Made by a program: the position numbers and the translations under genes. 64,000 nt of DNA from an uncultured Pseudomonadales bacterium (lineage in GTDB: Bacteria > Patescibacteriota > Microgenomatia > UBA1400 > PJMF01), in the NCBI GenBank assembly GCA_964583795.1, contig CAZOWX010000001.1, positions 30,569-94,568 of the forward strand, written 5' to 3'. The notes under the pieces were generated by a model, which saw only the letters and a list, made by a program, of their open reading frames with translations, had not been told where the DNA came from and searched no databases. This document shows positions 998 to 29,147 of the stretch, one piece after another (the stretch's first letter is position 1; each line of letters begins with the position of its first letter).

Positions 998-1834
998 ATG
1001 AAAGATATGGAAAAACTTCCCATCACTGTTGTAGTTCTGACGAAAAATGAAGAACAAATGATAGTGAACTGTATCGAGACAGTACAATGGTGTCAAGAAA
1101 TCGTGGTCATCGATAGTCAATCAACTGACTCAACTGCGGCCCTTGCAAAGAGAGCTGGAGCTATCGTGTACACCACTGATAAAGATTCATTTGCAGAGCG
1201 ACGAAACTATGGCCTTACCAAAGTTCGCACTCCTTGGGTGTTTTATCTTGATGCTGATGAGCGAGTCACTCCAGATCTGATGATGGAAATTAAGTCAGCA
1301 ATACGTGATGGGTCAATCAACGCGTTACGCCTTCATCGACATAATTATCACTATGGGAAAATGATGAACTATGGAGGATGGGAAAAAGATCAGTTAGTCC
1401 GCATTTTTCGCACAGAAGCACTTACTACATGGAGCGGAAAAGTGCACGAGTCCGCCCAATTCTCAGGTCAAGAAAAACTTCTCAAAGCATCACTCGTTCA
1501 TCTCACGCATCGAAATATGGTCGAGGGCTTATACAAAACAATCTCTTGGACACATGATGAGGCACAGCTTTTATTTGAAGCCCATCACCCTCCAGTAACT
1601 CGATTTACTCTGCTTCGAAAAACAATCATGGAGTTTTTACGCCGAGCGTTTTTTTGGCATGGTAAAAAAGATGGCGTAGAAGGATGGATAGAAGCAATGG
1701 TTCAAGCCATGAATAAATTCATCGTGTATGAACAACTTTGGGAGCTACAACAAACCCCATCACTCTACGAAAAATACCAAAAACTAGACGAAGATATAAT
1801 CCGTCAGTGGGAAAACCAAGTCGATCATTCATGA
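998..1834 (+). CDS. Glycosyltransferase family 2
   Basis: N-terminal PITVVVLTKNEE…VVIDSQSTDST…YLDADE is a GT2 Rossmann/DxD arrangement of the LPS-core/WaaE-like type. Confidence 0.75.
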   Translation: MKDMEKLPITVVVLTKNEEQMIVNCIETVQWCQEIVVIDSQSTDSTAALAKRAGAIVYTTDKDSFAERRNYGLTKVRTPWVFYLDADERVTPDLMMEIKSAIRDGSINALRLHRHNYHYGKMMNYGGWEKDQLVRIFRTEALTTWSGKVHESAQFSGQEKLLKASLVHLTHRNMVEGLYKTISWTHDEAQLLFEAHHPPVTRFTLLRKTIMEFLRRAFFWHGKKDGVEGWIEAMVQAMNKFIVYEQLWELQQTPSLYEKYQKLDEDIIRQWENQVDHS

Positions 1835-3894
1835 AAAACAAACGCTTGAATATCTGTATTTACTCTCCATACATGCCCGATCACTTTGGCGGTGGAGAGC
1901 GTTATGTACTGAGTGTCGCTGAGTTTTTGGCAAGAACCCACCACGTAAGTATCGCGCTGTCCACAAACGACTTAACCAAAGAAAAAATTGCCATTATTCG
2001 ACAACGGTATCAAGATTTTTTCCAACTCAACTTGAATCATATTAAATTCATTGCCTCACCGCTTGGTCCAGGTCATTTTGTACAAAAACTACTCTGGACG
2101 AAACAATTTGATGTACTGTATTACTTAACAGATGGCAGTTTATTTTTTTCGCTCGCGAAGCGAAATGTGTTACACATCCAGTTCCCGTTTACTCACCACA
2201 TGAGCGGGTTTCTAAACCGCATAAAGCTGAAAAATTGGAATGTACGCAATACAAACTCACAATTTACAAAAGATGTCATTGAACGCAACTGGAAGACCGC
2301 TATTCAATACGTGCATACTCCATATGTTGATACTCAAATTTTTAGACCAGCACATAAGAAAGAAAAAATTATTCTCAACGTCGGACGATTTTTTAGCCAC
2401 TTACATACTAAGCGGCAAGATATTTTGGTAAAGGCATTTAAAAACTTAACAGAGAAGTATCCTCAACACATGAAAGGGTGGAAGCTGGTACTCATTGGTG
2501 GCGTTGAAGATGAAATTTATGCTAAAAAAATAGCCAATCTAGCAAAAGATTTGCCGATTAAAATCATTCATAATGCTTCTGCTGAAACTCTAAAAAGCTA
2601 CTACTCACTCGCACAAATCTACTGGCATGCTACCGGCTTTGGCGTCGACGAGTTTATTCATCCCATGTTTGTTGAGCACTTTGGCATTTCCACGATCGAA
2701 GCAATGGCGAGTGGAGCTATTCCCATCGTAATAAACAAGGGCGGACAAAAAGAGTTGGTGGAACATGGTGTTAATGGCTTTTTATGGAATGAAATTGAAT
2801 CACTTGAGGAAAGAACCATTGCCTGTATCCGTCAAGAAGTCGATTGCGAAGAGTTACAAGAAAAAGCTCGTAGAAGTGTCCTGCGATACTCTCCATCACA
2901 GTTTTTTTCAACATTAAATGCAATGATTGGCTCAAATCAGCCAATTCCAAGTGACATTTCGGGTGAAGTTTCAGTGATTATTCCCACATTTAATGGTAAA
3001 AAGCTTTTGGAAAAAAATATCTCAAGTATTTTTGAATCAATGCGAACTGGTGACGAACTCGTCATCGTCGATGACGCAAGTAACGATGACACTGTTGACT
3101 GGTTACAATCAGAGTTTTCATTGAGTAAAAATGAAGATCGGGCAGAATTTGACGAGTTTGTTTTTGATGGAACATTTGAGAAAAAAAACAAAAAAATTTT
3201 GATCAAATTAATTCAAAATAAAACGAATCTTCGATTTGCGGCTAGTTGTAACAAAGGCGTTAAACTCAGCACACATGAGCTGGTGTTTGTCGTGAATAAC
3301 GACGTTAAACTGAAATCAAATACGTTAACCACGCTCGTTCCATATTTTTTGAATCACAACGGGCAAGCGCATCAGATATTTGGAATCGGTTGCTTGGAGG
3401 AAGAACGAAAAAAAGGAAAGATAGAGTATTCTGGCAAAAACAGCCTCTGGTTTGAGCGTGGGCTATTTGTTCACTCAAAAGCTTCTGAAATGATTACTGG
3501 AGAGACAGCTTGGGTGAGTGGCGGCAGTGGGTTGTTTAGTAAAGCAAAGTGGCAAGAGCTTCAGGGGTTTGACAGACGTTTTTATCCTGCCTACTGGGAG
3601 GATATTGATCTTTCTGCTCGAGCGAAGGAAAGAGGCTGGCAAGTACTGTTTGATGCTGAGGCTGTAGTCGAACACCATCATGAATCCACAAACCAGACTG
3701 CCTTTGGCCAAGAGAGAATTAACCAGATGTCATTTCAAAATGGAATGTTGTTCATGTGGATACATACAAATTTTGTTCAAAAACTACAATTTTTGGCTTG
3801 GTTGCCATACCACCTCGTTATTACTAATAGGCGCTCTCATGGGGCTTTTTTGCACGGCTTATTAAGGCTTTTATTGAAAAACTCTCAATCATAG
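1831..3894 (+). CDS. Bifunctional glycosyltransferase: N-terminal GT4 (GT-B) domain fused to C-terminal GT2 domain
   Basis: The start was moved to the internal ATG at 1831 (MKNKRLNICIYSPY…), which forms an ATGA overlap with the upstream stop. The N-terminal half has the GT4 EHFGISTIEAMASGAIPIV motif. The C-terminal half has GT2 motifs (VSVIIPTFNG…LVIVDDASNDDT…YWEDIDLSARA). Confidence 0.75.
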   Translation: MKNKRLNICIYSPYMPDHFGGGERYVLSVAEFLARTHHVSIALSTNDLTKEKIAIIRQRYQDFFQLNLNHIKFIASPLGPGHFVQKLLWTKQFDVLYYLTDGSLFFSLAKRNVLHIQFPFTHHMSGFLNRIKLKNWNVRNTNSQFTKDVIERNWKTAIQYVHTPYVDTQIFRPAHKKEKIILNVGRFFSHLHTKRQDILVKAFKNLTEKYPQHMKGWKLVLIGGVEDEIYAKKIANLAKDLPIKIIHNASAETLKSYYSLAQIYWHATGFGVDEFIHPMFVEHFGISTIEAMASGAIPIVINKGGQKELVEHGVNGFLWNEIESLEERTIACIRQEVDCEELQEKARRSVLRYSPSQFFSTLNAMIGSNQPIPSDISGEVSVIIPTFNGKKLLEKNISSIFESMRTGDELVIVDDASNDDTVDWLQSEFSLSKNEDRAEFDEFVFDGTFEKKNKKILIKLIQNKTNLRFAASCNKGVKLSTHELVFVVNNDVKLKSNTLTTLVPYFLNHNGQAHQIFGIGCLEEERKKGKIEYSGKNSLWFERGLFVHSKASEMITGETAWVSGGSGLFSKAKWQELQGFDRRFYPAYWEDIDLSARAKERGWQVLFDAEAVVEHHHESTNQTAFGQERINQMSFQNGMLFMWIHTNFVQKLQFLAWLPYHLVITNRRSHGAFLHGLLRLLLKNSQS

Positions 3895-3935
3895 TACCAG
3901 ATAACACTATAACTTTGGTAAAATAACACTTATCT

Positions 3936-5570
3936 ATGACTCAGCTACTCAAGAGATACTCTTTTGGATTAATGTTTATTGCTATTATCTGTATCGCTAC
4001 TGTGCTTCGCCTCTATAAGCTTGACCAAGTCCCGTCTGGCATGAGCTGGGACGAAGCAGCAATTGGCTACAATGGCTACGCTATCTGGACTGTGCATCGT
4101 GACGAGTGGTTACATTTTATGCCATTTTCGTTTAAATCATTTGGGGATTTCAAGGCTCCGTTTGCTATCTATTTAAACGGAATATTTACAGTACTTTTCG
4201 GACTACAGCTTTGGGTAATACGTCTACCATTCGTAATTGCTGGTGTCGCAAGTATCATCGGAATGGCATGGTTGATTCATCTGTTGTTTCAAGTATTTCC
4301 ATTTCGTCAGGAAAATCAAAAAAACGCTTCTCAACTCACAGTTCTCGGGATTGCTTTCATCATCACGACTTCACCATGGCACATCTTTTTTACTCGGGCA
4401 GGATTTGAATCAGGTATGGCGATGGGCTTTATGATTTGGGGTATGTGTTTCTTTTTGCAAAGTCTCCACACTCAATCAAAACGTTTTTTATTTGTGGGTT
4501 TGAGTGTAATCAGTTTCGTATTGGGCCTGTATACCTATCACAGTGCTAAAATCTTTTTACCAATTTTTTTTGTTGTTCTTTTTGCCTTTTTCTTTCAATC
4601 AATCAAAAAACATTTCGCTGTCTATAGCTTTGGACTCATTTTCGGAATCATATTGCTGACACCACTCGTGTATGACTCGGTGCTTGGTCAGGGTACAGAA
4701 CGGTTTTCTCAAACTTCGTTATTTAGCAATCAAAAGTTGACCTCAACTGAAAAATTGACAACTTTTGTCAGTAACTATGCTCACCAATTTTCACCAGCTT
4801 TTTTGTTTGCTGGAGAAACAACCACACTTCGACATGGAGATGGGCACTGGGGAGTGTTGTTTTTAACCGATGGATTGTTGCTGATAGCGACAACTATCTG
4901 GTTTATTCTCCTTTCTGTATCGAAAAAAGCTGCTCGGTTTTCCTCTCCACTATCCAAAATCTACCTATTGGGAGTTTCATGGTTTTTAATCGGTTTGTTG
5001 CCAGCAGCAATCGGAATGGAAATTCCTCATGCCAACAGAGCATTATTAAGTTACCCAGGTTTTCTGATCATCGAAGCATTGGGAATATTTTTCCTACTGG
5101 AGAAACTTACTGCAAGTAGTAAACCAACAGTAAAACTTGTTGTTCAGGCACTATTAGGAACTGGATTCATGCTTCATGTTTTTTTTGTCGTGTCGTTTAC
5201 TCATGATTACTTTTCCAAATACTCGCTCGACTCAGCTGAGGCTTTTCAGTACGGTTACAAAGAGGTATTTGATTACGTTTTACCTCGCGAATCACAAGTT
5301 GAGAAAGTATTAATCACTTCTAAATATGGCCAACCGTACATTTACACATTGCTGTATCGCCACACCAATGCCATTTTGTATCACGGTGGGGCTCTGAGCA
5401 AATATGAGTACCCCGATACGGTCAATATCGGCGATGTGATTCGTAAAAACGCTATTGTTGTTGCAACCCCTGAAGAACTTGATCCATCTATTGCTGATCA
5501 ACTTATTCTTGCTCCAAGTGGAGAAGTTCGGTTTGTGATTATTAATACGGCAGAGCATCCAAGGCTATGA
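3936..5570 (+). CDS. GT-C membrane glycosyltransferase, PMT_2/ArnT-like (GT39/GT83-type), paralog 1 of the tandem array
   Basis: Polytopic membrane protein. The loop-1 acidic motif WDEAA, FKSFGDFKAPF, RLPFVIAGV and EIPHANRALL are shared with the three downstream paralogs. Confidence 0.75.
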   Translation: MTQLLKRYSFGLMFIAIICIATVLRLYKLDQVPSGMSWDEAAIGYNGYAIWTVHRDEWLHFMPFSFKSFGDFKAPFAIYLNGIFTVLFGLQLWVIRLPFVIAGVASIIGMAWLIHLLFQVFPFRQENQKNASQLTVLGIAFIITTSPWHIFFTRAGFESGMAMGFMIWGMCFFLQSLHTQSKRFLFVGLSVISFVLGLYTYHSAKIFLPIFFVVLFAFFFQSIKKHFAVYSFGLIFGIILLTPLVYDSVLGQGTERFSQTSLFSNQKLTSTEKLTTFVSNYAHQFSPAFLFAGETTTLRHGDGHWGVLFLTDGLLLIATTIWFILLSVSKKAARFSSPLSKIYLLGVSWFLIGLLPAAIGMEIPHANRALLSYPGFLIIEALGIFFLLEKLTASSKPTVKLVVQALLGTGFMLHVFFVVSFTHDYFSKYSLDSAEAFQYGYKEVFDYVLPRESQVEKVLITSKYGQPYIYTLLYRHTNAILYHGGALSKYEYPDTVNIGDVIRKNAIVVATPEELDPSIADQLILAPSGEVRFVIINTAEHPRL

Positions 5571-7255
5571 TATCGAAACTTATGACTCGCCATCACCTCG
5601 TTATTGTTAGTATCTTGTTGATCAGTTTTGCCCTACGGGTCGTCAATCTACAACATCTCCCTCCATCACCATATTGGGAAGAAGTCGCTTTAGGATATGA
5701 CGCGTATAGTATTTTAAAAACTGGAAAAGATCATCATGGTCACCTCTTTCCACTTGTGGCTTTTGAGTCGTTTGGTGACTACAAACCATCAGGATATTTT
5801 TATGCTATTGTGCCCTTTATAGCACTGATTGGTTTGTCGGTATTTGCAGTACGACTCCCATCAACTCTAGCAGGAGTTGCTATTGTCTACTTTAGTGGCG
5901 CGATTGCCAAATTACTGTTTCACTCTGAAATAGCGAAACAAGCGCATTCATGGAAAGCAATTTTACTTTCTCCACAAATACTGACCATGATTGTGACTGC
6001 ATTTTCACCGTGGGCCCTGCAATTTTCTCGGGGAGGGTGGGAAGTTAACTTAGCAACATGTTTTTTGACTATTGGTGTATACAGTGCACTACGAGCAGCG
6101 CAACAACTACAAACCAAAGGGCACTCAACAACTCTGGTGTTTCAATGGTACTTTATTGGCTTTATTTTCTTTATTCTCTCCACGTATACCTATCACTCGA
6201 CTCGGATCATTGCGCCACTCTTGGGGATAGTTACTGCAATCCCACTGCTCAAACAAGCCGCAAAATACAAACTCACCATTGCGGCGCTCCTATTTTTGGG
6301 AATTCTAACAATGCTCCCAATACTGTATCAAATAAAAGATCCAGCGGTCACTCATCGATTACAAGAAACTTCCGCTTTTACTACTCAACAAGAAATTGAT
6401 CAAAGTAATCAACTCATTACCCAATTTGGCTCAACTCGACTGGCAAGAATTGTGTTTCACCGTGACTGGTTTTACCTCAAAACATTTTTATCGAACTACT
6501 TTTCTCACTTTCGTCTCGATTACCTTTTTCTATCTGGAGATAACAATACTCGACATTCAACCCATTTTTTTGGATTATTTTTTCCAACTGACCTGGTTGT
6601 ACTTGCACTTGGAGTTATTGCGATGGTAACGCAATGGAAACACCGTTTTCATTTGTTGTGGATTTGGCTTGGTATCGGGCTCATCCCATCAGCTCTCACC
6701 AAAGATGTGCCACACGCTCTTCGCACCCTGCCAGTGCTGCCGGTATATATGGTAACTCTGGGAATTGGATTTACCTACTTATTTGAACAGCTGGCTAAAC
6801 TTCGTTTCTCAAAACTTCTTTTTGCAGGTATTAGCTTTATCGTTTTGGCTGAAATTATCGTGTATTGGCATTTTCACTTTACAGTATATCCAACCTATTC
6901 TTCCAAAGAATGGCAGTACGGCTATCAACAAATGATTGCGGCCATTAAAAGCAATCAACAAACAAATGAAGCAGTGTTTATTACCACTGAAAAAAAACGG
7001 CCAGCCATGTACTACTGGTTTTTTACTAAAACGGATCCCGTTTTAGTCCAAGCAGAAGAAAATACCGCTCAAAAAGATCAAGGAGAGTTTTTATCATTTC
7101 AAAATATCAAGTTCATTTTTCATTTATCAGGGAGTGAGCAAGGCCTAATTGCCAGCGGACCAGAGCAGCGAAAAAACTTTCCTAACGCTCAAGAGTTAGC
7201 AACCATTACCGATTTACAAGGCCATCCAATTTGGATTGTTTACCGGGCACAATAG
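5567..7255 (+). CDS. GT-C membrane glycosyltransferase, PMT_2/ArnT-like, paralog 2
   Basis: ATGA overlap with paralog 1. Motifs are WEEVALGYDAY, FESFGDYKPSGYFY, RLPSTLAGV and DVPHALRTLPV. Confidence 0.75.
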   Translation: MISKLMTRHHLVIVSILLISFALRVVNLQHLPPSPYWEEVALGYDAYSILKTGKDHHGHLFPLVAFESFGDYKPSGYFYAIVPFIALIGLSVFAVRLPSTLAGVAIVYFSGAIAKLLFHSEIAKQAHSWKAILLSPQILTMIVTAFSPWALQFSRGGWEVNLATCFLTIGVYSALRAAQQLQTKGHSTTLVFQWYFIGFIFFILSTYTYHSTRIIAPLLGIVTAIPLLKQAAKYKLTIAALLFLGILTMLPILYQIKDPAVTHRLQETSAFTTQQEIDQSNQLITQFGSTRLARIVFHRDWFYLKTFLSNYFSHFRLDYLFLSGDNNTRHSTHFFGLFFPTDLVVLALGVIAMVTQWKHRFHLLWIWLGIGLIPSALTKDVPHALRTLPVLPVYMVTLGIGFTYLFEQLAKLRFSKLLFAGISFIVLAEIIVYWHFHFTVYPTYSSKEWQYGYQQMIAAIKSNQQTNEAVFITTEKKRPAMYYWFFTKTDPVLVQAEENTAQKDQGEFLSFQNIKFIFHLSGSEQGLIASGPEQRKNFPNAQELATITDLQGHPIWIVYRAQ

Positions 7256-7267
7256 CAATTACATATC

Positions 7268-8947
7268 ATGTCTCATATTTTTACTCAACATCGATTCACT
7301 CTTTTAGCAGTAGTCATACTCGGATTAAGTTTTGTTTTTCGTTTTTGGCAATTAGGAAATGTGCCAGTTGGTTTGTATTGGGATGAAGTGGCTATGTATG
7401 TTGATGCGAAAACAGTTTCACAATCATTGAAAGATATGCATGGAAATAGCGCTCTACAAGCGATGTTTCCATCATATGGTGATTACAAGTTACCAGTGTA
7501 CATCTGGCTAGCAAGCTTGAGTTTTAAGCTGTTTGGAGCGAGCAACTTTGCGCTGCGATTGCCCAGTGCTATAGCAGGGATACTGCAAGGGTACCTCATC
7601 TTTGTATTGGTTAAAGAACTCTCAAATAAATTCATTTCGAAAGAAAAAAGTCAGTACTTGGGTTTATTGGGTTGGTTTGTTTCAGCAGTTTCACCATGGA
7701 GCGTGTTATTTTCGCGAACTGGATTTGAAGGACACATCGGTCAATTACTCATCTGCGCTTCAGTCTTCAGCTTCGTTTCTTCTAAAAGAAACAGGTTGTG
7801 GCTTATACCAGCTATAGTATTGGGAATCTTGAGCACATACACCTATTATAGTGTCCGGTTCGTTTGGCCCATCGTATTCATAGGGTACTGGTTTTTACTT
7901 CAACCATTTCCCAAAACACTACTGCAATTTGTTAAATCTAGTTTTGTGAGTGTAGCGTTACTTCTTATCTGGGGAATAGGAATCTTACCGCTCTTTTTTT
8001 CTCCTTGGTATCAACCAAGTCAACAATTTCGCCTTAGCACTCCATCGCTGATGGATTTGGGTCCATACAGTATTCGCTCAAACGAGTTTCGCGAAATGAG
8101 TGGCAATGGGCCACTTTCTAGAGTGTTTTATCATCAGCGCGTTTTGCAACTGCGCGATGTGCTCGAGCATTACGCGGATCATTTTGACTTTTCATATCTA
8201 TTTATTTCAGGAGATAAAAATTTACGACATAGTACGGGCTTCGATGGTCTGTTTTTACTCTTTAGCGCACCACTACTCGTAGCTGGAATCTTATATTTGG
8301 TGAAAAACGATGTTCGACTGTTTTTGTTTTTGTTTGGATGGTGGCTGATTGCCTTGTTACCAGCATCTATTCCAATTGAAACGCCTCACGCACTGCGATC
8401 ACTCAACGCCTTAACTCCGATACTTTTGTTAATGAGTTTCGGGGGTATTCCAATTACACAAATTATACAATCAATCCGACCGGCTTCATTTCGTTTTGGG
8501 GCAGTTTTTTTGATTATCCTCATGATAACAGTTCAAGTTACTTGGTTTACGGTTGACTATTTTTTTATTTATCCAGGTAAAAGTGCTCATGACTGGCAGG
8601 AGGGATACCAGACTCTAGCGAAAGTCATAGAAGATAAACATGGTTCATATGACAAAGTTTGGGCAAATCCGTATGATGATCGATTCTTTTTGTGGTATCT
8701 AGCGTACTCCAATATGGACGCGCAGCGGATTCAAAGCATAATGAAAGATACCTTTTTGACAGATCGAATTGACAATATTATTTTTCAAGAGTTTCCCTTT
8801 GATAAATCAAACCCCAGTGTCCGCCCGTTCATGACCATAAAACGCAGTACTGCAGACAACGATGAGAATAATCCATCGACAACGCAGCAAGAGATTTTGG
8901 GGTATGATCACCAACCATTGTTTATCATTCGTTATTATGAACGCTAA
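7268..8947 (+). CDS. GT-C membrane glycosyltransferase, PMT_2/ArnT-like, paralog 3
   Basis: Motifs are WDEVAMYVDAK, FPSYGDYKLPVYIW, RLPSAIAGI and ETPHALRSLNAL. Confidence 0.75.
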   Translation: MSHIFTQHRFTLLAVVILGLSFVFRFWQLGNVPVGLYWDEVAMYVDAKTVSQSLKDMHGNSALQAMFPSYGDYKLPVYIWLASLSFKLFGASNFALRLPSAIAGILQGYLIFVLVKELSNKFISKEKSQYLGLLGWFVSAVSPWSVLFSRTGFEGHIGQLLICASVFSFVSSKRNRLWLIPAIVLGILSTYTYYSVRFVWPIVFIGYWFLLQPFPKTLLQFVKSSFVSVALLLIWGIGILPLFFSPWYQPSQQFRLSTPSLMDLGPYSIRSNEFREMSGNGPLSRVFYHQRVLQLRDVLEHYADHFDFSYLFISGDKNLRHSTGFDGLFLLFSAPLLVAGILYLVKNDVRLFLFLFGWWLIALLPASIPIETPHALRSLNALTPILLLMSFGGIPITQIIQSIRPASFRFGAVFLIILMITVQVTWFTVDYFFIYPGKSAHDWQEGYQTLAKVIEDKHGSYDKVWANPYDDRFFLWYLAYSNMDAQRIQSIMKDTFLTDRIDNIIFQEFPFDKSNPSVRPFMTIKRSTADNDENNPSTTQQEILGYDHQPLFIIRYYER

Positions 8948-10517
8948 AACCTTCATCATTACACTTGTTTCCATTGTCGTTTTCGGATCAATTATTCGAT
9001 TCGTAGCTCTTGATCAATATCCACCTCAGCTTAACCGAGACGAAGCCGCTTTGGCCCTTAATGCCAGACTGATTGCTCAAACTGGTTTTGATGAGTGGCA
9101 TCATCACTTGCCACTGCAATTTCAGTCTTTTGGCGATTACAAGTTACCAGGGTATATCTACTTGTTATCAGGGTTGTTCTTAATTCACACTAGTGATGTT
9201 GTTGTGCGTTTGCCTTCAGCTTTAGCAGGGATGGGAATAGTCATTACTCTGCTATTTTGGGCACAAAATGTACTCAAATTTCCATTGTCGCGTGCATCCA
9301 AAATCGTCTTGCTCCTGAGCATTTCACTCTCTCCTTTTGCTATGTTTTACTCCAGGATGGCCTGGGAAGCAAACCTGTCACTTTTTCTGATGCTCTCTGC
9401 TTTGACACTACTACATTCTCAAAAACCAACACTTCACAAAGATCTTTTGGCTCTGCTGATCTACTTCGCAGCAATTTTGACCTACAACAGTGCATATATC
9501 TTGTTACCGTTCATTGCGTTTTCGGTAGTCTTATCAAGGGGAATCAACAAATACCGATTTTGGCTACTTCCACTCGCTTCATTTTTAGTCATATTTACCA
9601 TAAGCTCACTCATACTAATGTCGAATAACTCCCAAAAATCTGGAATTTTAATTTTTAGTGATGGTGCCATTCTCGATACCTATCCTAAATATCGCCAAAG
9701 TTTTCCTAATGTGTTGCGGCCCGTTGTCGGCAATAAATACGTCTATTTCTCACAGATTGCTGCCACTCACTATCTACAGACATTTTCTCCGTATTTTCTG
9801 ATTACTCATGGTGGACAGCACCCATGGCACTCAATTTTAGGGAAAGGGCACATTTTTTACAGTACATATGTTTTATTTCTTATCGGTGTTATGACTCAGC
9901 TGAGCAAAGCAATTTACTTTTTGAAAATGAGACACAAATGGAAAAAATTAAGTACTCGATCAATTATTCCGTTTTTTTTGCTAATCGTCTCACCATTACC
10001 CTCTATTTTTACCACAGACGCGCCCCATGCCACCCGAAGTTTGTTTACTTTTATCATGATTATTGTGTTTTCTGCTATCGGAGGACAACACCTGCTAAGC
10101 ACAGCAGCAAAACACTCATTCCAGTTGCGAAAAGCAGTCATCACCATTCTCTTGGGCTTGCTCATCTTTGAGGGTGCTAACTATTTAAACAGTTATTTTA
10201 TTGTGTGGCCCCACCAATTCTCTCCAGACTTTCAACTTGGACTCAAACAAAAAATCACAGATGAAGTGCTACAACCAAGAGACGGCAACATTGGCATTTT
10301 GGATACCGGCGAGTATGTATACGCCTCAGTCGCTTGGTATGCAAGGCTGCAACCACAGTTATTTTTCGATACAATAGAACGAAGTGGACCATCAGTAGCC
10401 GGTTTATATACTGTAACTCGAGTGGGGAAATACTACTTTATTCCTGACAAGAACATTGCTGTTCCTTACGGCTCAGAAGTACTCACTCCTACCAAATCTG
10501 GATGGGAATGGCAATAA
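8937..10517 (+). CDS. GT-C membrane glycosyltransferase, PMT_2/ArnT-like, paralog 4
   Basis: The start was moved to the ATG at 8937 (MNAKTFIITLVS…), overlapping the paralog-3 stop by 11 nt. Motifs are NRDEAALALNA, FQSFGDYKLPGYIY, RLPSALAGM and DAPHATRSLF. Confidence 0.7.
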   Translation: MNAKTFIITLVSIVVFGSIIRFVALDQYPPQLNRDEAALALNARLIAQTGFDEWHHHLPLQFQSFGDYKLPGYIYLLSGLFLIHTSDVVVRLPSALAGMGIVITLLFWAQNVLKFPLSRASKIVLLLSISLSPFAMFYSRMAWEANLSLFLMLSALTLLHSQKPTLHKDLLALLIYFAAILTYNSAYILLPFIAFSVVLSRGINKYRFWLLPLASFLVIFTISSLILMSNNSQKSGILIFSDGAILDTYPKYRQSFPNVLRPVVGNKYVYFSQIAATHYLQTFSPYFLITHGGQHPWHSILGKGHIFYSTYVLFLIGVMTQLSKAIYFLKMRHKWKKLSTRSIIPFFLLIVSPLPSIFTTDAPHATRSLFTFIMIIVFSAIGGQHLLSTAAKHSFQLRKAVITILLGLLIFEGANYLNSYFIVWPHQFSPDFQLGLKQKITDEVLQPRDGNIGILDTGEYVYASVAWYARLQPQLFFDTIERSGPSVAGLYTVTRVGKYYFIPDKNIAVPYGSEVLTPTKSGWEWQ

Positions 10518-21883: not shown

Positions 21884-23470
21884 TCAAGCCGCCGAGGCTG
21901 GTTTTACTTGTTTCGGGGAAAAGTCTTTGAGGTGACCTAAGAAACGCCACCCAGCCATAGCCAAAAACTTCACATCATCAAACGATCGGATGCTAGTAAT
22001 TTTTCTGAGCATAAACCGTGGTGTTAAAAATGACGAGTATAGTTTTTGGGTAAGCCGTAAGACGTCTTCTTGCGTCAGTGACGTTTTCATCACCGGCTTT
22101 CGCATGTCATAGTCCTCATAATCCTCACTCAATAACCACCCGTTCTCTTTGCATTCCTTCCAAAGTGGGGTACCTGGATAAGGGATAGTGATAGTCGCTT
22201 GAAGTGTATCAACATAGCCTTCGTCAAAGCACTCTTTAGCGAGATTAATCGTTCGCTCTGCGTCCTCATATGTTTCCCAGGGATATCCCAGCATTATCGT
22301 TAAATGCGGCTCTAATCCAGCTTTCTTGGCCATTTTCACACCTTCTTTAATTTTGGGAACTTGCATACCTTTCTCGAGCCGATCGAGCGTTTTTTGATTA
22401 CCTGACTCCATGCCATAGAGAATGAATCGAAAATTCGCTTTTCCCATTAGGTCATAATCATCTTGCTTTATGGCATTAAGCCGCATATTACAGCCATAGA
22501 TCACTTTTTTGTTGTATCCCGAGTCAATCATCATCTGGCAAAAATCACGAAGCGGCTTGCCAATCATGAATGTACCCGCATCATCAAAAATTTCTTTGAC
22601 GTGATAGTTATCAACTAAGTGCTTGACTTCAGCGAATAGTCGCTCAGGACTAAATCGACGATAACTCCCCAAGGGGTTGATTGTATGATCCCAAACACAA
22701 AAGGTACAACGATTCCACCAACAATCGCGCCCACTGTACATGTAGGTACCAGGATAATACTTATAATTTCCGTTGTAGTACGCGTAGTTTTCCCAATGTG
22801 TCAGGTCGCGATCGACGAATGGTAAATCATTCAAGTTGTGCTTTAAACTTGCAGGACCAGAGTTGTAATATATTTTGCCATTTACCCCTTTAACCTTATG
22901 AAATTTCTTACATGAAATGGACTTATCTGACGAACGCCACCACACTCCCGTTTCAAGCTCTGTTCCCTTGCTCAAGTGGTCAAGTAAGTTCACAATCACA
23001 AAATCATAATCACCACCGGTAATCAAGTAATCTACACTGCAATTGTCCATCGTCTCCTGAGGCATGAAGGTCACGTGATCACCAACTAAGACTACTTTAA
23101 GTTTTGGCATCGCTTTTTTTATTTTGTCGACAACTTTCCAATGTTTTTTAATCACTGGTGATTTTGACTCAATCATCAGTACATCTGGATTGAATTCCTT
23201 AAGTTCTGTGAGCCATTGATCATACGTTTGCTCAGCAGCAATACCGTCCATCCACTTAGTTTCATAACCATGCTCTTGTGCATTCGACGCTGCATACGCT
23301 GGAACCATCGGGTAAATATAGGTCTTTGCGTTAAAATACTGAAATTGTCGGTTTTGAGAAAGAAGCGGAACCCCTTTACTTGACGGAATTGGAGGATAAC
23401 CAAAAACAAACTTCAACTTTTTTATTGATTTTTGTTTCATCACTTTTTTTGTGGTTTTTTTCGCTGGCAT
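21884..23470 (-). CDS. Cobalamin(B12)-binding-domain radical SAM protein (class B rSAM, probable methyltransferase)
   Basis: The N-terminal Rossmann-like B12-type domain is KVVLVGDHVTF…ITGGDYDF. The radical SAM cysteine cluster is RDCWWNRCTFC. The class-B motif GMESGNQKTLDRLEKG is present. Confidence 0.65.
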   Translation of the reverse strand: MPAKKTTKKVMKQKSIKKLKFVFGYPPIPSSKGVPLLSQNRQFQYFNAKTYIYPMVPAYAASNAQEHGYETKWMDGIAAEQTYDQWLTELKEFNPDVLMIESKSPVIKKHWKVVDKIKKAMPKLKVVLVGDHVTFMPQETMDNCSVDYLITGGDYDFVIVNLLDHLSKGTELETGVWWRSSDKSISCKKFHKVKGVNGKIYYNSGPASLKHNLNDLPFVDRDLTHWENYAYYNGNYKYYPGTYMYSGRDCWWNRCTFCVWDHTINPLGSYRRFSPERLFAEVKHLVDNYHVKEIFDDAGTFMIGKPLRDFCQMMIDSGYNKKVIYGCNMRLNAIKQDDYDLMGKANFRFILYGMESGNQKTLDRLEKGMQVPKIKEGVKMAKKAGLEPHLTIMLGYPWETYEDAERTINLAKECFDEGYVDTLQATITIPYPGTPLWKECKENGWLLSEDYEDYDMRKPVMKTSLTQEDVLRLTQKLYSSFLTPRFMLRKITSIRSFDDVKFLAMAGWRFLGHLKDFSPKQVKPASAA

Positions 23471-23478
23471 ATGAGTCC

Positions 23479-24456
23479 TTATTGAGCTAAATGATTAGTA
23501 AACAAATACCCTTGAACAAATCGTAATCCGTACCAAAGATGTGTTACAAAAACCGATGCGATCGAAATAATCGCTTGTAATAAACTCTTCGATGATAAGC
23601 CAATCCATACTGCATTCGCAAGTAGGGCTATAGCATAGAACAACAATGGAAGTACTATCAACAAGCTCAACGACGGAAATAGCGCTAGAGAAGTAAGCAG
23701 TGTGGCGACATTCAACACCATCAATGTTGGTAGAAAATAAATAAGCTTTGCTGATGTTTTTGGTAAGACTCTCGCAAAAAACCCTCGGTGTATCCCAAAA
23801 TTGCCATTTTGTTTTAGATGTGCTCGCCACAATGGCCTGCGATGATGGTACACAATAGCCTTTGGCTCATACAAAATCTTCTTTCCCCTATGAATCAAAT
23901 CTAAACACAGTTTAGTATCTTCTCCTGGATAGTAATGCGAGTCGAAACCGCCAATGGCACTAAATTCTGAAGCTCTTACAAGTAGGTTCATGGAGGGATA
24001 ATCCTCTACGTACTGCTGCTTTCCTGGCAGAAATCGATAGGTATATGGTCCAGCACCAATGGGTGAAGCACTAACCCAACCACTAGCTGCTTCAGTCCAA
24101 TCAACTTTAGGGGGAGTAATGCCTGGACCCCCAACTGCTGCAATTTGCATATTGGTAAAGTGTGCTACAGCGCTTGTGAGCCAATCAGAACTTGGGTACG
24201 CATCATCATCGATAAAGGCAAATATCTGGCCGTGCGCATACTTGATAGCCAAATCTCTTTTTTGTGCCGGTCCAATTGGCCCTGTTTGAATATATTGAAC
24301 CCGATTCATTTTGGGCATACCGTTTTTTTGGTCGCAAAAAACAAACACTTCAGTTGTTGGATAGGTCAATTTTCCTATTTGCGAAAGGCACTCTTTGAGA
24401 TAGGAATTAACTGATCGCACTGGAATGATGATAGAAACGAGAGGTGTCTGGTGCAT
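23479..24456 (-). CDS. Glycosyltransferase family 2 with C-terminal membrane anchor
   Basis: Motifs are VSIIIPVRSVNSYLKECL…AFIDDDAYP…GEDTKL. Two C-terminal hydrophobic helices follow. Confidence 0.75.
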   Translation of the reverse strand: MHQTPLVSIIIPVRSVNSYLKECLSQIGKLTYPTTEVFVFCDQKNGMPKMNRVQYIQTGPIGPAQKRDLAIKYAHGQIFAFIDDDAYPSSDWLTSAVAHFTNMQIAAVGGPGITPPKVDWTEAASGWVSASPIGAGPYTYRFLPGKQQYVEDYPSMNLLVRASEFSAIGGFDSHYYPGEDTKLCLDLIHRGKKILYEPKAIVYHHRRPLWRAHLKQNGNFGIHRGFFARVLPKTSAKLIYFLPTLMVLNVATLLTSLALFPSLSLLIVLPLLFYAIALLANAVWIGLSSKSLLQAIISIASVFVTHLWYGLRFVQGYLFTNHLAQ

Positions 24457-24471
24457 AAAAACAGTTCAAAC

Positions 24472-25296
24472 TTAAATCAAGGGAATAATTTTTCTCTTCA
24501 CTTTTTCAGGCGGATGAAACCGGGAGTGCGGTAACTCGTAGTACTTCATTATTTTAAAGCGATAAAAAATCCCTAAAGTGTCGTAAAAAATCTTCCAAAT
24601 ACTTTTCCAGTCTGCAGCAGAACTGATGTTCGAAAAAGTATAATCTAACTTAATAGGAGCTTCGTAAATCCGATGAAATCCCAAAGACTTTGCTACAACC
24701 AACATCTCTAAATCACCAGCAAAACGTTTTTCAACCAAACGAGGCAAGGTTTTTTCCAACACCTTACGTTTAAAAACCTTAATCCCAGCTTGTGTATCTT
24801 TCACTTTGACCCCAAATAGGGTTTTCACAAAGTAGTAATACCCAATACTCAAGATTTTTCGCTGCAATGTATAATTTACCTGAGAAGCAGGGTGACGTTT
24901 TGACCCGACAATGACATCGGCGTTATACCACTTCATGTGTTCTAACAACATGCTAATCCCATCCGCCCCGATTTCCATACCAGAATCTAAAAACATCACG
25001 TGTTCTCCCAAAGCTTGACTCATCCCAAAACGAATGGCATACGATTTCCCTTTATTTTCCGCATACTCATACACACTCGCTTGCGATAATCGCCCATACT
25101 TCCCTCTAATGCTCGCATTACTCAACACACGAAAAGAGTTGTCATACTCTCCATCAACAACCACAATCACCTCATAGGAGTAACGAGTTCTTCCCAAGGT
25201 TTCAACTATTTGCTTCAAATTGTCAACAATAAATTTTTCTTGTTTATAGCAGGGGATAATTAAACTTAAAAATGGGGTTTGCTTCATGCTCAACAA
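24472..25296 (-). CDS. Glycosyltransferase family 2 (polyprenyl-phosphate glycosyltransferase / DPM1-GtrB-like)
   Basis: Motifs are LSLIIPCYKQEKFI…VIVVVDGEYDNS…FLDSGME. The size and layout resemble Dpm1/GtrB-type enzymes that load a lipid carrier. Confidence 0.65.
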   Translation of the reverse strand: MLSMKQTPFLSLIIPCYKQEKFIVDNLKQIVETLGRTRYSYEVIVVVDGEYDNSFRVLSNASIRGKYGRLSQASVYEYAENKGKSYAIRFGMSQALGEHVMFLDSGMEIGADGISMLLEHMKWYNADVIVGSKRHPASQVNYTLQRKILSIGYYYFVKTLFGVKVKDTQAGIKVFKRKVLEKTLPRLVEKRFAGDLEMLVVAKSLGFHRIYEAPIKLDYTFSNISSAADWKSIWKIFYDTLGIFYRFKIMKYYELPHSRFHPPEKVKRKIIPLI

Positions 25297-25306
25297 ATGT
25301 TGGTAA

Positions 25307-25753
25307 TCATTTAATACCAGATAAAATATTTTCTACCCACGCCTCCACCGATTGCATAATCACATCATCTGGAAATCCATCAATTTTTAGTGAGTCTCCC
25401 ACGATTTGTGCTTTTTTTGCAGTCAAGTCGTTATTCATCAATGAAACAACATTACAAAACACAGGATAAAAACTCTCTCCCAATCCATACACAGCACATT
25501 TCACGTTGCTCAGATCAGTTGATGAAGCTTTGAGTTGATCAAAAAAGGCCTGCGAAAAGTCATTGTACTCACCATCCCCCCAAGTTGAGGATCCAATGAA
25601 AACCAGTTCATACTGCGTTAATTGATCTACTTTGAGTTCAGACATATCAACCAAACTAACCTGATGACCTTTTTGTTTCAATAGTTCTTCAATTTTTTGA
25701 GCAACCATCATGGTGTTACCACCAATCGATGCATAGGTAACAAGTGTTTTCAT
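25307..25753 (-). CDS. Flavodoxin (short-chain)
   Basis: MKTLVTYASIGGNTMMVAQ carries the flavodoxin T/SxTGxT phosphate-binding signature. FIGSSTWGDGEY is the FMN-binding loop. Length is 148 aa. Confidence 0.75.
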   Translation of the reverse strand: MKTLVTYASIGGNTMMVAQKIEELLKQKGHQVSLVDMSELKVDQLTQYELVFIGSSTWGDGEYNDFSQAFFDQLKASSTDLSNVKCAVYGLGESFYPVFCNVVSLMNNDLTAKKAQIVGDSLKIDGFPDDVIMQSVEAWVENILSGIK

Positions 25754-25859
25754 ATCAAGCTATAAGTAATTATTAACTCACGTAATCGTACTTTAACTTA
25801 ACAGTATTTTTCTCAGATGAAAAGGTGCTAAATGCACTCAAATCGCTATCACTCGCGAC

Positions 25860-26846
25860 CTATTTTACTATAGCGCGAAAGTACTCTATAGTTTTTCGCA
25901 ATCCTTCTTCAAAATCAACTTTTGGCTCCCATTGCAACAACTCTTTTGCCTGCTGAATAACTGGTTGTCGGCGAGTGGGATCATCCGCTGGAAGAGGCAG
26001 GTACTCGACCTGAAGGGAATGTCCCACAACTCGCTCAAACATCTTTACTGTTTGCATGATAGTAAACTCTCCAGGATTCCCCAAGTTTACCGTTTTCCCA
26101 TTCCCAAGTGGGTGCAGTAGCAACGCTAAGATTCCGGACACTAAATCATCGACATAACAGTACGACCGTGTTTGTGACCCATCACCAAACACTGTTAGGG
26201 GAGTATCATGAAGTAACGATTGAACAAAACTGGGAATAATTCTTCCATCACTCAGGTCCATACGTGGACCATACGTATTAAAAATACGAACAATTCTCAC
26301 GTCTTGCTGAAAATCTCGCTGAAACACCCCGCAAATTGTTTCTCCCATCCGTTTTGCTTCGTCATAACACGAACGCTTCCCATTTGGGTTGACGTTTCCC
26401 CAATATGATTCACTTTGGGGATGAACCTGCGGATCACCATACACTTCAGATGTTGACGCAAATAAAAAGGGAATGCGTTGCTGTTTTGCTTGAATAAATG
26501 AAAGTAACTGGTGTGTCCCCATTGCGTTCACTAAATACGTTTCAACGGGATGCTCTTGATAACGCGGAGGGCTTGCGGGCGAAGCAAAATGCAAAATGTA
26601 ATCGATGTGTTGATCCTTTGGGATGTATTTGTCTGGATAATCCGAGACATCAGCTTCAGTGAAGATAAAGTGATCAGCAAAACTGCGCGTTAAAATGTCT
26701 ATATTCTGTCGTTGACCGGTAATAAAATTATCAGCACCAACAACTTTCCCTCCTTCTTGCATAACCGCTTCAGCTAAATGAGACCCAACAAATCCAGCAA
26801 CTCCAGTTATTAAAACAGTTTTGTTGTTAAAACGTGAAGAACTCAT
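25860..26846 (-). CDS. UDP-glucuronate decarboxylase / UDP-xylose synthase-like SDR (dTDP-glucose 4,6-dehydratase family)
   Basis: KTVLITGVAGFVGSHLAEAVMQEGGKVVGADNFITGQRQN closely follows the UXS N-terminus. The catalytic Y in YDEAKRMGE is present. Confidence 0.75.
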   Translation of the reverse strand: MSSSRFNNKTVLITGVAGFVGSHLAEAVMQEGGKVVGADNFITGQRQNIDILTRSFADHFIFTEADVSDYPDKYIPKDQHIDYILHFASPASPPRYQEHPVETYLVNAMGTHQLLSFIQAKQQRIPFLFASTSEVYGDPQVHPQSESYWGNVNPNGKRSCYDEAKRMGETICGVFQRDFQQDVRIVRIFNTYGPRMDLSDGRIIPSFVQSLLHDTPLTVFGDGSQTRSYCYVDDLVSGILALLLHPLGNGKTVNLGNPGEFTIMQTVKMFERVVGHSLQVEYLPLPADDPTRRQPVIQQAKELLQWEPKVDFEEGLRKTIEYFRAIVK

Positions 26847-26858
26847 TGATTGATTGTA

Positions 26859-27704
26859 TCATTGTGTCGGTTGAGTCGCCACCAAAGTTTGTGGCTTTGG
26901 CTTTAACAACGTTTTCCTATTTCGATACGTGTTGAACAAAAGATTCAAAAACAATAAAGGCATTAAATAGGGCTCTGTGAGGTGTAACCGCATAGCAAGT
27001 GGCACGAGAATTCCCAAAAAAGCTCCATAGACTATTTGTTCTTTTTGATTGACGGGTGAGGTCTTTGGTTCAACAACCATTACCAGTACAAAAAAGAGTA
27101 AGGTTCCCTCGAGTAGGATAAATGCAGGAGAACGATGAACTAATAGTACGTGGGAAAGTATAAATAATAGTAAGAATGTTCCAACAATAAACAACTTCCG
27201 ATATTTCCAAGCGACATAGAGTCCCACTGGAACAGTTAAAAACACGACAATACTCATTCCGCCACGTATAATCGGTATCCTTGGAGTGAAGCTTGCTCCC
27301 CACCAGACAGGTGAGAAATGAATCAAACTCACAATTGTTGCAGCAAGCGCTGCTGGATTAAAAATCGGGCCACTCGGTAAGCGAGCTACACGTTGCAAAA
27401 GTTCCACCAACACTCCAACACAAAAGTAAAAGTACCAAGGATAGTCAATGTAAAATAATAATGAAAGAATAAGGCAGGTAATCAACCGGTGTTCAAAACG
27501 GGTTTCTCTGGTGAATTTTCTCCATAACAACACACGATAGACAAAAAAAGCACCCAAACATATGCTCAGAAAATTTCTCACAACACTCAAAGCGTCGAAC
27601 AGAGAACTGGATGCAACGCTGAGTGTTGCCATCACAAACACAATTGTGAGATAGTAGAGTAATGTGCGTATAGGCAGGATGCGAATGGACATGGTATTAT
27701 TCAA
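26859..27704 (-). CDS. Polytopic membrane protein, function unknown (first gene of the long minus-strand glycan operon)
   Basis: About 8 hydrophobic segments. No motif recognised. Confidence 0.4.
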   Translation of the reverse strand: MNNTMSIRILPIRTLLYYLTIVFVMATLSVASSSLFDALSVVRNFLSICLGAFFVYRVLLWRKFTRETRFEHRLITCLILSLLFYIDYPWYFYFCVGVLVELLQRVARLPSGPIFNPAALAATIVSLIHFSPVWWGASFTPRIPIIRGGMSIVVFLTVPVGLYVAWKYRKLFIVGTFLLLFILSHVLLVHRSPAFILLEGTLLFFVLVMVVEPKTSPVNQKEQIVYGAFLGILVPLAMRLHLTEPYLMPLLFLNLLFNTYRNRKTLLKPKPQTLVATQPTQ

Positions 27705-27718
27705 ACTTGTCTATTTAA

Positions 27719-27753
27719 TTTGCATATTACAAATATACTAACATAATTTGGAG
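27719..27753 (+). promoter_or_regulatory. Sigma70-like promoter plus RBS for the FMN-binding lipoprotein gene (TTTGCA -35 / CATAAT -10 / GGAG)
   Basis: TTTGCA 27719–24, a ~17-nt spacer and CATAAT 27742–47. GGAG 27750–53 sits 5 nt before ATG 27759. The region is divergent from the minus-strand operon start. Confidence 0.45.
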
Positions 27754-27758
27754 ACAAT

Positions 27759-28205
27759 ATGCCCAAATCAACAGCTCTATTACTGAGCACAACAATTATG
27801 GCTAGTGTACTGTTAGCCGCATGTACACCCTCATCACCAGCAAGTGAAACTTCGCAGACTCAACCATCTGAACCAACTACCGCCCCTACAACTGAGAATA
27901 CCGGTGAGATGACGAAAGGCAAGCAAGTTTCAGTTGATGCTCCTTATGAGTCTCCTGCTGGCGAAGAAAGCATCGGAATTACACTGAGCGTTGACGAAAA
28001 TGGGGTGATAACGGATGCAAAGGCCGAAGTAAAAGCTACTGAAGAAAAATCAATTGTTCGTCAACAGGCATTTGCTGATGGGCTTCCAACAGCAGTAAAG
28101 GGCAAAAAATTATCTGAATTGACTAAAATTGACAAAGTGGGGGGATCTTCACTAACCACACAAGCATTCAATGAAGCACTTGTGAAATTAAAGGCTCAAT
28201 TATAA
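27759..28205 (+). CDS. Lipoprotein with C-terminal FMN-binding (FMN_bind/NqrC-RnfG-like) domain, predicted extracytoplasmic
   Basis: The signal peptide ends with the lipobox LLAAC. The C-terminal IDKVGGSSLTTQAFNEAL resembles the flavinylation motif D-x-x-SGAT-[TS] of ApbE substrates. Confidence 0.5.
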   Translation: MPKSTALLLSTTIMASVLLAACTPSSPASETSQTQPSEPTTAPTTENTGEMTKGKQVSVDAPYESPAGEESIGITLSVDENGVITDAKAEVKATEEKSIVRQQAFADGLPTAVKGKKLSELTKIDKVGGSSLTTQAFNEALVKLKAQL

Positions 28206-28229
28206 TTGAGTCTGATTAAAAAAGTTTCA

Positions 28230-28263
28230 ATACCTGCTTCGGCTCGAAGCAGGTATTGTTTTT
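28230..28263 (+). terminator. Rho-independent terminator (12-bp perfect stem ATACCTGCTTCG/CGAAGCAGGTAT, loop GCT, then TGTTTTT)
   Basis: Read directly from the sequence, 25 nt after the lipoprotein stop. Confidence 0.7.
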
Positions 28264-28280
28264 ACAATCAAATAAATTCT

Positions 28281-29147
28281 ATGTTTGATTACACATTTGA
28301 ATCCATGGGAACTCATTGGAGTCTCTCAATTGACCACCAACACGTAACTTCAAGCGTGATTGAGGACATTAAAACCCAAACAAAGCAATTCGAACAACGG
28401 TTTTCTCGTTTCATCAAAAGCAGTGAATCTAATCAATTTCGCAAAAGTAAAGCTGGTGACTATCTAATTTCTACCGAATTTGCCGGACTGCTCAATGCGG
28501 GACAGCAATTATTTGAGTTGACTGGCGGAGCGTTCGATATGAGTATCGCCTCTTTCTTTGAACAAATCGGTTACGACGAAAGTTATAGTTTTCGTTCAAC
28601 AAAAAACACTCAGTGGAATGCTCCAAAATGGTCTCTTCATGGCAAACTTCTTTCCATTTCGGGCCCAATCGTATTTGACGTGGGAGGTTTTGGAAAAGGC
28701 TATTGGATTGATCAGATAAGTCAGATTTTACACAAGCACAATTTCCCACACCATCTGGTTGAGGGTGGAGGGGACATGGTTGCTACAGAAAAAAAAGACA
28801 ATTCTGCTTGGAATGTCGCTATTGAGTATCCTGGACAACCTGATCAAGCAATAGGTACAGTAGAGCTGAAAAATCAAGGCCTTGCAGTGTCGGATATTTT
28901 TAAACGAAAGTGGCAAAACTATCATCACTTGATTAACGCGAAATCGCACAAGCCAATTCACCATATTGTTAGTAACGCCGCAATCGCACCAACAGCGTTT
29001 TTAGCAGACCAGATGACCTCAGCACTTAGTTTTGCGCAACCGTCCCAATACCCTTTTATTGCACAGCAGCTTTCTGCTGAGTATTTTGTGATCAAACCCC
29101 AAAATGAACTGTTACAAAGTGCCAAATGGCCAGGAATATTTTTTTAA
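28281..29147 (+). CDS. apbE: FAD:protein FMN transferase, ApbE family
   Basis: The N-terminal FESMGTHWSLSI matches the ApbE (F/L)xxMGT start. Length is about 290 aa. The start was placed after the terminator hairpin, and no signal peptide is apparent. Confidence 0.65.
   Translation: MFDYTFESMGTHWSLSIDHQHVTSSVIEDIKTQTKQFEQRFSRFIKSSESNQFRKSKAGDYLISTEFAGLLNAGQQLFELTGGAFDMSIASFFEQIGYDESYSFRSTKNTQWNAPKWSLHGKLLSISGPIVFDVGGFGKGYWIDQISQILHKHNFPHHLVEGGGDMVATEKKDNSAWNVAIEYPGQPDQAIGTVELKNQGLAVSDIFKRKWQNYHHLINAKSHKPIHHIVSNAAIAPTAFLADQMTSALSFAQPSQYPFIAQQLSAEYFVIKPQNELLQSAKWPGIFF

Follow-up and report, generated by a model that had tools for sequence, protein, structure and literature searches.

The window analysed here (64,000 nucleotides of contig CAZOWX010000001.1 from an uncultured bacterium, assembly GCA_964583795.1; G+C about 40%) carries three adjoining genes, hereafter the triad, whose products are a membrane protein of the NqrB/RnfD family (the RnfD-like protein), a lipoprotein of the flavin mononucleotide (FMN)-binding type FMN_bind, and an FMN transferase of the ApbE family. 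The closest relatives of the window's proteins are found in assemblies of Patescibacteria (candidate phyla radiation). The RnfD-like gene (26859-27704, minus strand) encodes 281 amino acids when read from TTG 27704, or 277 in the NCBI call from ATG 27692, and is divergent from the two others, which lie on the plus strand: the lipoprotein gene (27759-28205, 148 amino acids), with a GGAG Shine-Dalgarno sequence 6 nucleotides 5' of its ATG, and the ApbE gene (28281-29147, 288 amino acids from ATG 28281). The 54-nucleotide region between the divergent genes (27705-27758) presumably holds back-to-back promoters; a promoter-like match within it (27719-27747) is no better than chance, and an Rfam scan of the window gave zero matches. 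A terminator-like hairpin (28228-28263, plus strand) separates the lipoprotein and ApbE genes.

A standalone membrane protein of the NqrB/RnfD family

The initial annotation, made from the sequence alone, had positioned the membrane protein correctly but had called it unknown, whereas domain, profile and fold comparisons place it in the NqrB/RnfD family. It matches Pfam PF03116 with 32.4 bits (gathering score 27.7), a profile of its family retrieves RnfD and NqrB from the PDB at E = 1.7e-6 to 1.5e-3, and an AlphaFold2 model (predicted local distance difference test, pLDDT, 94.5) has RnfD or NqrB as all of its top 15 Foldseek matches, with a probability of 1.0 and template modelling scores of 0.55-0.65. 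Urea and Rh/Amt-type channels come next, at ranks 16, 18, 19, 25 and 40, with non-significant scores.

The long periplasmic loop bearing the covalent-FMN site is replaced by a short conserved stretch, P-x-W-W-G-x-S-F-x-P-R, and the flavinylation motif D-x-x-x-G-[AS]-[ST] is absent from the RnfD-like protein. The Thr of the RsxD stretch S-Q-A-T aligns with a variable hydrophobic position in the RnfD-like family, and in the HMMER alignment the matched part of NqrB begins at residue 248, so that the covalent-FMN Thr236 of NqrB would precede it. Both alignments agree that a counterpart of the flavinylated Thr of RsxD and NqrB appears to be missing, the alignment of loops being uncertain at such a distance. 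The conserved Ser151 of the RnfD-like protein was considered as a cryptic flavinylation site and rejected: its flanks are variable or bulky, and it aligns with the GE(V/I)S motif of NqrB/RnfD.

Only some 20 residues follow the last helix of the protein, and no cytosolic redox domain is fused to it. An exhaustive profile search recovered 571 cluster representatives of this short RnfD-like family (E <= 1e-10), and most of the 150 best-scoring ones are likewise standalone proteins of 250-320 amino acids. Fused relatives nevertheless occur, with FAD_binding_6 and NAD_binding_1 domains in P0265 and P0314 and with a Rieske domain in P0287, and such FNR-like and Rieske fusions favour a redox over a transport role for the membrane domain.

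A probable FMN_bind-type lipoprotein with a predicted acceptor serine

The lipoprotein opens with a Sec-type lipoprotein signal (MPKSTALLLSTTIMASVLLAAC) whose lipobox L-A-A-C ends at Cys22 (codon 27822-27824), followed by a disordered linker rich in Ser, Thr and Pro and by a folded domain at residues 55-148; the protein includes the internal stretch IDKVGGSSLTTQAF. Among 42 distinct orthologues, 17 show the lipobox pattern and most of the remaining 25 carry a hydrophobic anchor of the positive-inside kind at the N-terminus, a few being fragments or over-extended open reading frame (ORF) calls. The lipoprotein is thus predicted to be extracytosolic.

Membership in FMN_bind (PF04205) is firmer at the level of the family than for the single protein. 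The window lipoprotein itself scores 19.3 bits (E = 0.0018), under the gathering score of 22, and 6 of 29 family members match FMN_bind (E <= 0.01, best E = 4.8e-5), the sole Pfam family to recur, while the L013 orthologue lies above the gathering score with 25.4 bits (L numbers designate related loci). Alignment with hhalign of the lipoprotein family to the FMN_bind subunit of a classical Nqr/Rnf-like locus, L022, gives a probability of 98.2% and E = 5e-14. An AlphaFold2 model of the domain has three strands and two long helices with pLDDT > 90. Against the PDB, phmmer found zero matches to the lipoprotein and the family profile gave only IscU, weakly.

In the published flavinylation motif, D-x-x-[S/T]-G-A-[S/T], the final residue is the FMN acceptor (PMC12052999). 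Alignment with hhalign sets IDKVGGSSLTT of the lipoprotein over FDQFTGATITP of Escherichia coli RsxG. The residue in register with the last motif position there is Ser131 (codon 28149-28151), the second Ser of GGSS, which stands where the last helix begins; it is predicted to accept the FMN phosphoester, instead of the Thr of GSSLTT proposed in the initial annotation. The window motif, D125-K-V-G-G-S-S131 (28131-28151, plus strand), agrees with the published one in its Asp, in the Gly at -2 and in its last residue, Ser. A motif could be tabulated for 41 of the 42 orthologues and always ends in Ser or Thr; it reads D-[KR]-[VI]-G-G-S-S in 34, and the remaining forms include the fully canonical DKLSGAS as well as DRIAGAS, DTVGGAS, DKVGKST, DKVGTSS and SRVSGSS. 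No second motif of the D-x-x-x-G-[AS]-[ST] type was found among window ORFs of at least 100 amino acids.

ApbE retains its active site and has no recognisable signal peptide

The ApbE protein (N-terminus MFDYTFESMGTHW) matches PF02424 with 139.7 bits (gathering score 25.6, E = 1.7e-40) over profile positions 1-258 of 266, and its matches to ApbE/Ftp structures in the PDB, down to E = 1.1e-14, align from the first residues of the mature domain. Since its residue 7 aligns with residue 21 of the signal-peptide-less E. coli crystal construct, the protein begins where the mature domain begins, 8 residues ahead of the conserved MGT motif. A database search yielded 99 orthologous clusters, each covering at least 60% of the query, of which 95 are full-length (273-323 amino acids). 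Where the motif [ML]-G-[ST] is matched among them, it lies 0-21 residues from the N-terminus, and 8 residues from it in 65; none of the 99 has an N-terminal hydrophobic stretch or signal peptide, the maximal 12-residue Kyte-Doolittle hydropathy being <= 1.91. The initial reading of this gene as an ApbE without signal peptide beside an exported substrate is thereby upheld.

The possibility of an in-frame exported extension upstream of the ApbE gene was also followed. The only such extension starts at TTG 28206 and covers the 25 codons back to the lipoprotein stop (MSLIKKVSIPASARSRYCFYNQINS); it is hydrophilic and overlaps the hairpin. In L001, L015, L016 and L017 the stop of the upstream gene lies only 7-9 nucleotides before the ApbE start, leaving no space for an overlooked signal peptide in those loci. 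Together with the N-termini of the 99 orthologues, these observations rule out a signal peptide hidden upstream of ApbE. Expression of a fusion by read-through from the lipoprotein, suggested by a shared frame interrupted by one TAA followed by 25 sense codons, was likewise ruled out: the frames differ in L001 and L003, and a 1-nucleotide insertion or deletion breaks the frame in L019/L020.

Active-site conservation is complete or nearly so. All 95 full-length orthologues keep F44 (the equivalent of E. coli Y60), K139-G140 of the GKGY motif, D144, D165, H216 and D243, and 92 keep T246. By alignment to E. coli Ftp, H216 corresponds to the catalytic His and D243 and T246 are metal-binding; the role of Y60 in aromatic stacking on the isoalloxazine ring (PMC4767422) and that of the catalytic His (PMC12052999) have been described. 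With these residues in place, the protein has the appearance of a working FMN transferase, one for whose export no signal can be recognised. A signal peptide is typical of ApbE without strictly defining it, cytosolic members being known (PMC12052999).

Conservation of the triad in Patescibacteria

Synteny in relatives, proposed as a check by the initial annotation, extends well beyond the window. As in the window, the RnfD-like gene and the lipoprotein-ApbE pair run in divergent directions in L001/L007, L003-5/L008, L009, L011, L012, L013, L015, L016, L017 and L023, and partly in L019. The triad is present in at least 12 distinct Patescibacteria genomes with otherwise unrelated flanks and down to 37% ApbE identity, and the lipoprotein and ApbE genes adjoin in every examined locus having both. 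No genes for RnfA/B/C/E or NqrA/D/E/F were found near the triad or in the flanks of the related loci.

Several triad assemblies (L009, L012, L013, L014) are titled "uncultured Bdellovibrionales" or "uncultured Pseudomonadales", and one ApbE orthologue goes under the name Vitreimonas sp.; such labels probably reflect metagenome bins assigned to the wrong taxon.

Genes of thiol and methionine sulfoxide chemistry lie near some of the related loci. In L006, which has no RnfD-like gene, positions 1706-5483 carry a diverged second FMN_bind paralogue (motif DKVGTSS), ApbE, DsbB, YggT-like genes, two unknown ORFs and the main FMN_bind orthologue; the DsbB gene directly after ApbE hints that the flavinylated protein may serve thiol-disulfide chemistry in a quinone-less organism. 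A gene for MsrB (SelR) stands three genes downstream of ApbE in L003 (8225-8800), L016 (9718-10236) and L017 (9681-10253). The longest ORF of the L003 gene adds an N-terminal hydrophobic segment, FGQTVLIFGLLLMFSAGALLLCF, which would be a membrane anchor if real; another gene caller chose a later start. MsrB is a possible extracytoplasmic client of the conduit proposed below. In L015, on a 1.4-Mb contig, a membrane-anchored DsbA/thioredoxin-like protein with a CPFC motif (4240-5019) is encoded two genes from the RnfD-like gene.

A lineage-specific hairpin ahead of the ApbE gene

The terminator that had been noted between the lipoprotein and ApbE genes is a real hairpin, but its perfect stem has 14 rather than 12 bp. 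The stem-loop occupies 28228-28258, with a GCT loop, and is followed by TTTTT, while an upstream run of A gives it a bidirectional look. The 86 nucleotides around it fold with -24.7 kcal/mol (z = -5.3), and 0 of 200 shuffled sequences fold as well. The hairpin is 100% identical in the sister contigs L019/L020, apart from a 1-nucleotide insertion or deletion in the A-run, at an ApbE identity of 75%; it is absent in L001 and L015-L017, whose intergenic gap is 7-9 nucleotides, and in more distant loci. It is therefore a lineage-specific feature and not a conserved part of the module. Because only 22 nucleotides separate it from the ApbE ATG, without an obvious promoter or Shine-Dalgarno sequence, ApbE is probably expressed by read-through. 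We infer that the hairpin is probably a partial terminator or a stabiliser of the mRNA 3' end that sets the ratio of substrate to enzyme.

Relation to described flavin electron-transfer systems

The overall idea of the initial annotation, a reduced extracytoplasmic flavin electron-transfer module, holds, but its statement that the arrangement matches no described system does not. Méheust et al. (eLife 2021) described "NQR/RNF-like" flavinylation clusters in 127 genomes, most of them from Actinobacteria and the candidate phyla radiation, and defined them by an NqrB/RnfD membrane domain that continues C-terminally into an NqrF-type NAD-binding domain (PF00175), with FMN_bind and ApbE genes beside it (PMC8238504). 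Huang et al. (mSystems 2024) showed a Nqr/Rnf-like membrane subunit without the flavinylated Thr, and in their AlphaFold-Multimer model the FMN of the extracytosolic subunit meets a non-covalent flavin site of the membrane subunit (PMC11334425). The window shares with this system an NqrB/RnfD-like membrane protein apparently without the flavinylated Thr, a probable FMN_bind subunit with a predicted membrane tether and a clustered ApbE; it differs in that its membrane protein, of 281 amino acids, stands alone without the defining NAD-binding fusion, and in gene order, as its membrane protein gene is transcribed away from its two partners. The two arrangements are bridged by locus L022, which combines the same FMN_bind family as the window lipoprotein and an ApbE without signal peptide with an RnfD-FNR fusion. 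The triad is a domain-reduced, Patescibacteria-wide form of the described NQR/RNF-like clusters and not an undescribed module. A literature search combining ApbE and Patescibacteria found no paper. One feature is odd, namely that the enzyme appears to stay inside the cell while its target is exported.

The RnfD-FNR fusion of L022 (6001-7533) is broken by one in-frame stop (...RGN*RTFTIASSP...) before the FAD-binding motif, and two proteins are annotated; the stop could be a sequencing error, a mark of a pseudogene or the sign of a genuinely split gene.

Compared with the RnfD-RnfG pair of Rnf and the NqrB-NqrC pair of Na+-NQR, the triad appears to have the same folds and families for both subunits, with the predicted acceptor in the same register at the start of the last helix, and would share ApbE-dependent maturation. 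Unlike them, it has no RnfA/B/C/E or NqrA/D/E/F nearby and apparently no covalent-FMN site in the membrane subunit, its predicted acceptor is a Ser in G-G-S-S as opposed to S-G-A-T, and it is presumably a one-way conduit, whereas theirs is a semicircular ion-pumping path. The cytosolic ApbE of Klebsiella pneumoniae, which targets a soluble fumarate reductase (PMC12052999), likewise lacks a signal peptide and is nevertheless an active FMN transferase, but its substrate is cytosolic, while the only linked substrate in the window is an exported lipoprotein, elsewhere a membrane-anchored ectodomain. Finally, the flavin-based extracellular electron transfer of the Listeria type (Ndh2, EetA/B, PplA, FmnB and ECF-mediated flavin export) uses, as the triad would, a surface lipoprotein with ApbE-attached FMN as its outward electron carrier in a monoderm envelope; the window, in contrast, has no Ndh2, EetA/B or quinone genes, its membrane component is RnfD-like, and the FmnB of Listeria is itself an exported lipoprotein that needs exported flavin.

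A proposed reduced electron conduit and its alternatives

Taken as a whole, the triad is most plausibly a reduced two-subunit Nqr/Rnf-like transmembrane flavin electron conduit with a dedicated maturation enzyme, a reading to which we assign a probability of about 0.6. The lipoprotein would anchor an FMN-binding domain of the RnfG/NqrC type on the outside of the cytoplasmic membrane, and ApbE would take FMN from flavin adenine dinucleotide (FAD) and attach it by a phosphoester bond to Ser131. The RnfD-like protein, having lost its own covalent-FMN loop, would pair with the lipoprotein and move electrons across the membrane, connecting the external FMN with a separate redox partner in the cytosol. 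Since no export signal is found anywhere in the ApbE clade, the simplest route would be for FMN to be joined to the C-terminal motif in the cytoplasm, while the precursor is still unfolded and its Sec export is either ahead or under way. The hairpin, acting as a leaky terminator, would let more substrate than enzyme be made.

A seven-residue motif is enough for ApbE and cytosolic ApbEs exist (PMC12052999), which makes flavinylation of an unfolded precursor before export mechanistically conceivable. The wider proposition that the whole ApbE clade, including at least 99 Patescibacteria clusters and at least one classical Nqr/Rnf-like cluster, acts in the cytoplasm on a Sec-exported substrate, the flavinylated chain being threaded through SecYEG, is decidedly tentative, and we hold it to be rather less probable than its negation.

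Several observations weigh against the conduit. Neither a cytosolic domain for electron input nor a conserved partner gene turned up around the triad loci, and we know of no case in which an already flavinylated protein is exported by Sec. A cytosolic ApbE is unable to replace the periplasmic one in Salmonella (PMC12052999). The association of the genes is not invariant, as the lipoprotein-ApbE pair occurs without an adjoining RnfD-like gene in L006 and L024 and a lone RnfD-like gene in L010 and L014. The lipoprotein of the window itself stays under the Pfam threshold of FMN_bind, its motif departs from the consensus at -3 (Gly, not Ser/Thr) and at -1 (Ser, not Ala), and its Foldseek matches in the PDB are weak, with IscU chains (E ~0.02) slightly ahead of RnfG chains (probability 0.57-0.72).

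Three other explanations were weighed. Flavinylation might be an ordinary extracytosolic process in which ApbE reaches the outer face non-classically, with the help of a partner or by way of a signal that goes unrecognised, and modifies the lipoprotein after its export, using exported FAD. Every ApbE/FMN_bind electron-transfer system that has been characterised does flavinylate outside the cytoplasm (PMC8238504; PMC12052999), and the substrate is clearly exported, by a lipobox or N-terminal anchor among the 42 orthologues; this explanation is nonetheless unlikely in view of the 99 ApbE orthologues without a hydrophobic N-terminus, the 7-9-nucleotide gaps in L001 and L015-L017, the hydrophilic upstream extension in the window and the lack of any FAD exporter gene linked to the cluster. 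Slightly less likely again is a role in flavin salvage or trafficking, with the lipoprotein capturing external flavin, the RnfD-like protein serving as its passage and the cytosolic ApbE-type enzyme processing FAD or FMN. Patescibacteria are generally auxotrophic, the predicted location of ApbE is the cytosol, a domain for redox input is absent, and the next-best folds after RnfD/NqrB are urea and Rh/Amt-type channels; ApbE/Ftp homologues can, moreover, be FAD pyrophosphatases in flavin trafficking (PMC4767422). Salvage would leave unexplained, however, a hydroxyl acceptor and flavinylation-type motif kept in 41 of 42 orthologues, as well as the invariant aromatic residue at the Y60 position and the invariant catalytic His of the transferase, and it sits poorly with homologous membrane domains that are fused to FNR-like or Rieske domains and with a family that is continuous with the published Nqr/Rnf-like system.

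Least probable is that the genes are coincidental neighbours, or that the lipoprotein is no flavoprotein but an IscU/NifU-like or other small alpha/beta protein, ApbE having an unrelated cytosolic substrate. The IscU chains at the top of the Foldseek matches, the name NifU-like given to an orthologue by one source and the sub-threshold FMN_bind score all point that way, but the mature lipoprotein has neither Cys nor His and hence no Fe-S ligands, which rules out an IscU/NifU-like Fe-S scaffold; and the constant adjacency of the pair, the motif register shared with RsxG and the L013 orthologue, which exceeds the FMN_bind threshold and has the canonical DKLSGAS, are at odds with coincidence.

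The candidate phyla radiation has been reported as strikingly under-represented for extracytosolic flavinylation (PMC8238504). In the published screens, a signal peptide had to be present in ApbE or FMN_bind and FMN_bind had to be detected at Pfam level, and they would probably have missed the standalone triad, with its sub-threshold FMN_bind domain, its ApbE without signal peptide and its lack of an NAD-binding fusion; the reported gap may thus be due in part to how the systems were detected. In that case many Patescibacteria would own a minimal transmembrane redox device despite tiny genomes and the lack of a respiratory chain, which would bear on their extracellular redox chemistry or their interaction with hosts. 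A signal-less ApbE with an exported target further raises the questions of where covalent flavinylation happens and whether a flavinylated chain can pass through Sec. Should the ApbE clade prove to act in the cytoplasm, it would represent a new biogenesis route for extracytoplasmic flavoproteins, one that does not need FAD export and that feeds a two-protein conduit in organisms thought to lack electron-transport chains.

Genomic surroundings of the triad

In the window, the neighbours of the triad are genes for an epimerase, a flavodoxin, glycosyltransferases, GreA and a PMT_2-type transferase. The short-chain flavodoxin (25307-25753, minus strand; PF00258, E = 4.8e-28) is encoded two genes downstream of the RnfD-like gene, in the same direction. 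Apart from the window, only the close relative L001 has it next to the triad, whereas L003, L009, L011-L013, L015-L017 and L023 do not. It is a weak candidate for the cytosolic electron donor, its client being more probably the B12-binding radical SAM enzyme (21884-23470) of the same glycan operon. A role as conserved cytosolic donor was rejected as unsupported, given the adjacency limited to these two loci and the glycan operon with its radical SAM enzyme.

The RnfD-like gene opens a long co-directional cluster for envelope glycans on the minus strand (21884-27704), which includes a UDP-sugar epimerase/dehydratase-type enzyme, the flavodoxin, two GT2 glycosyltransferases and the B12-binding radical SAM enzyme; past the radical SAM end follow a PMT_2-type transferase, a polysaccharide flippase and another GT2. 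Further away (3936-10517, plus strand), four tandem ORFs of 544, 562, 559 and 551 amino acids are found, with a Pfam match in one only (PMT_2, a GT-C-type membrane glycosyltransferase). Unannotated ORFs of a similar size, 540 and 551 amino acids, lie directly upstream of the RnfD-like gene in L003, L016 and L017.

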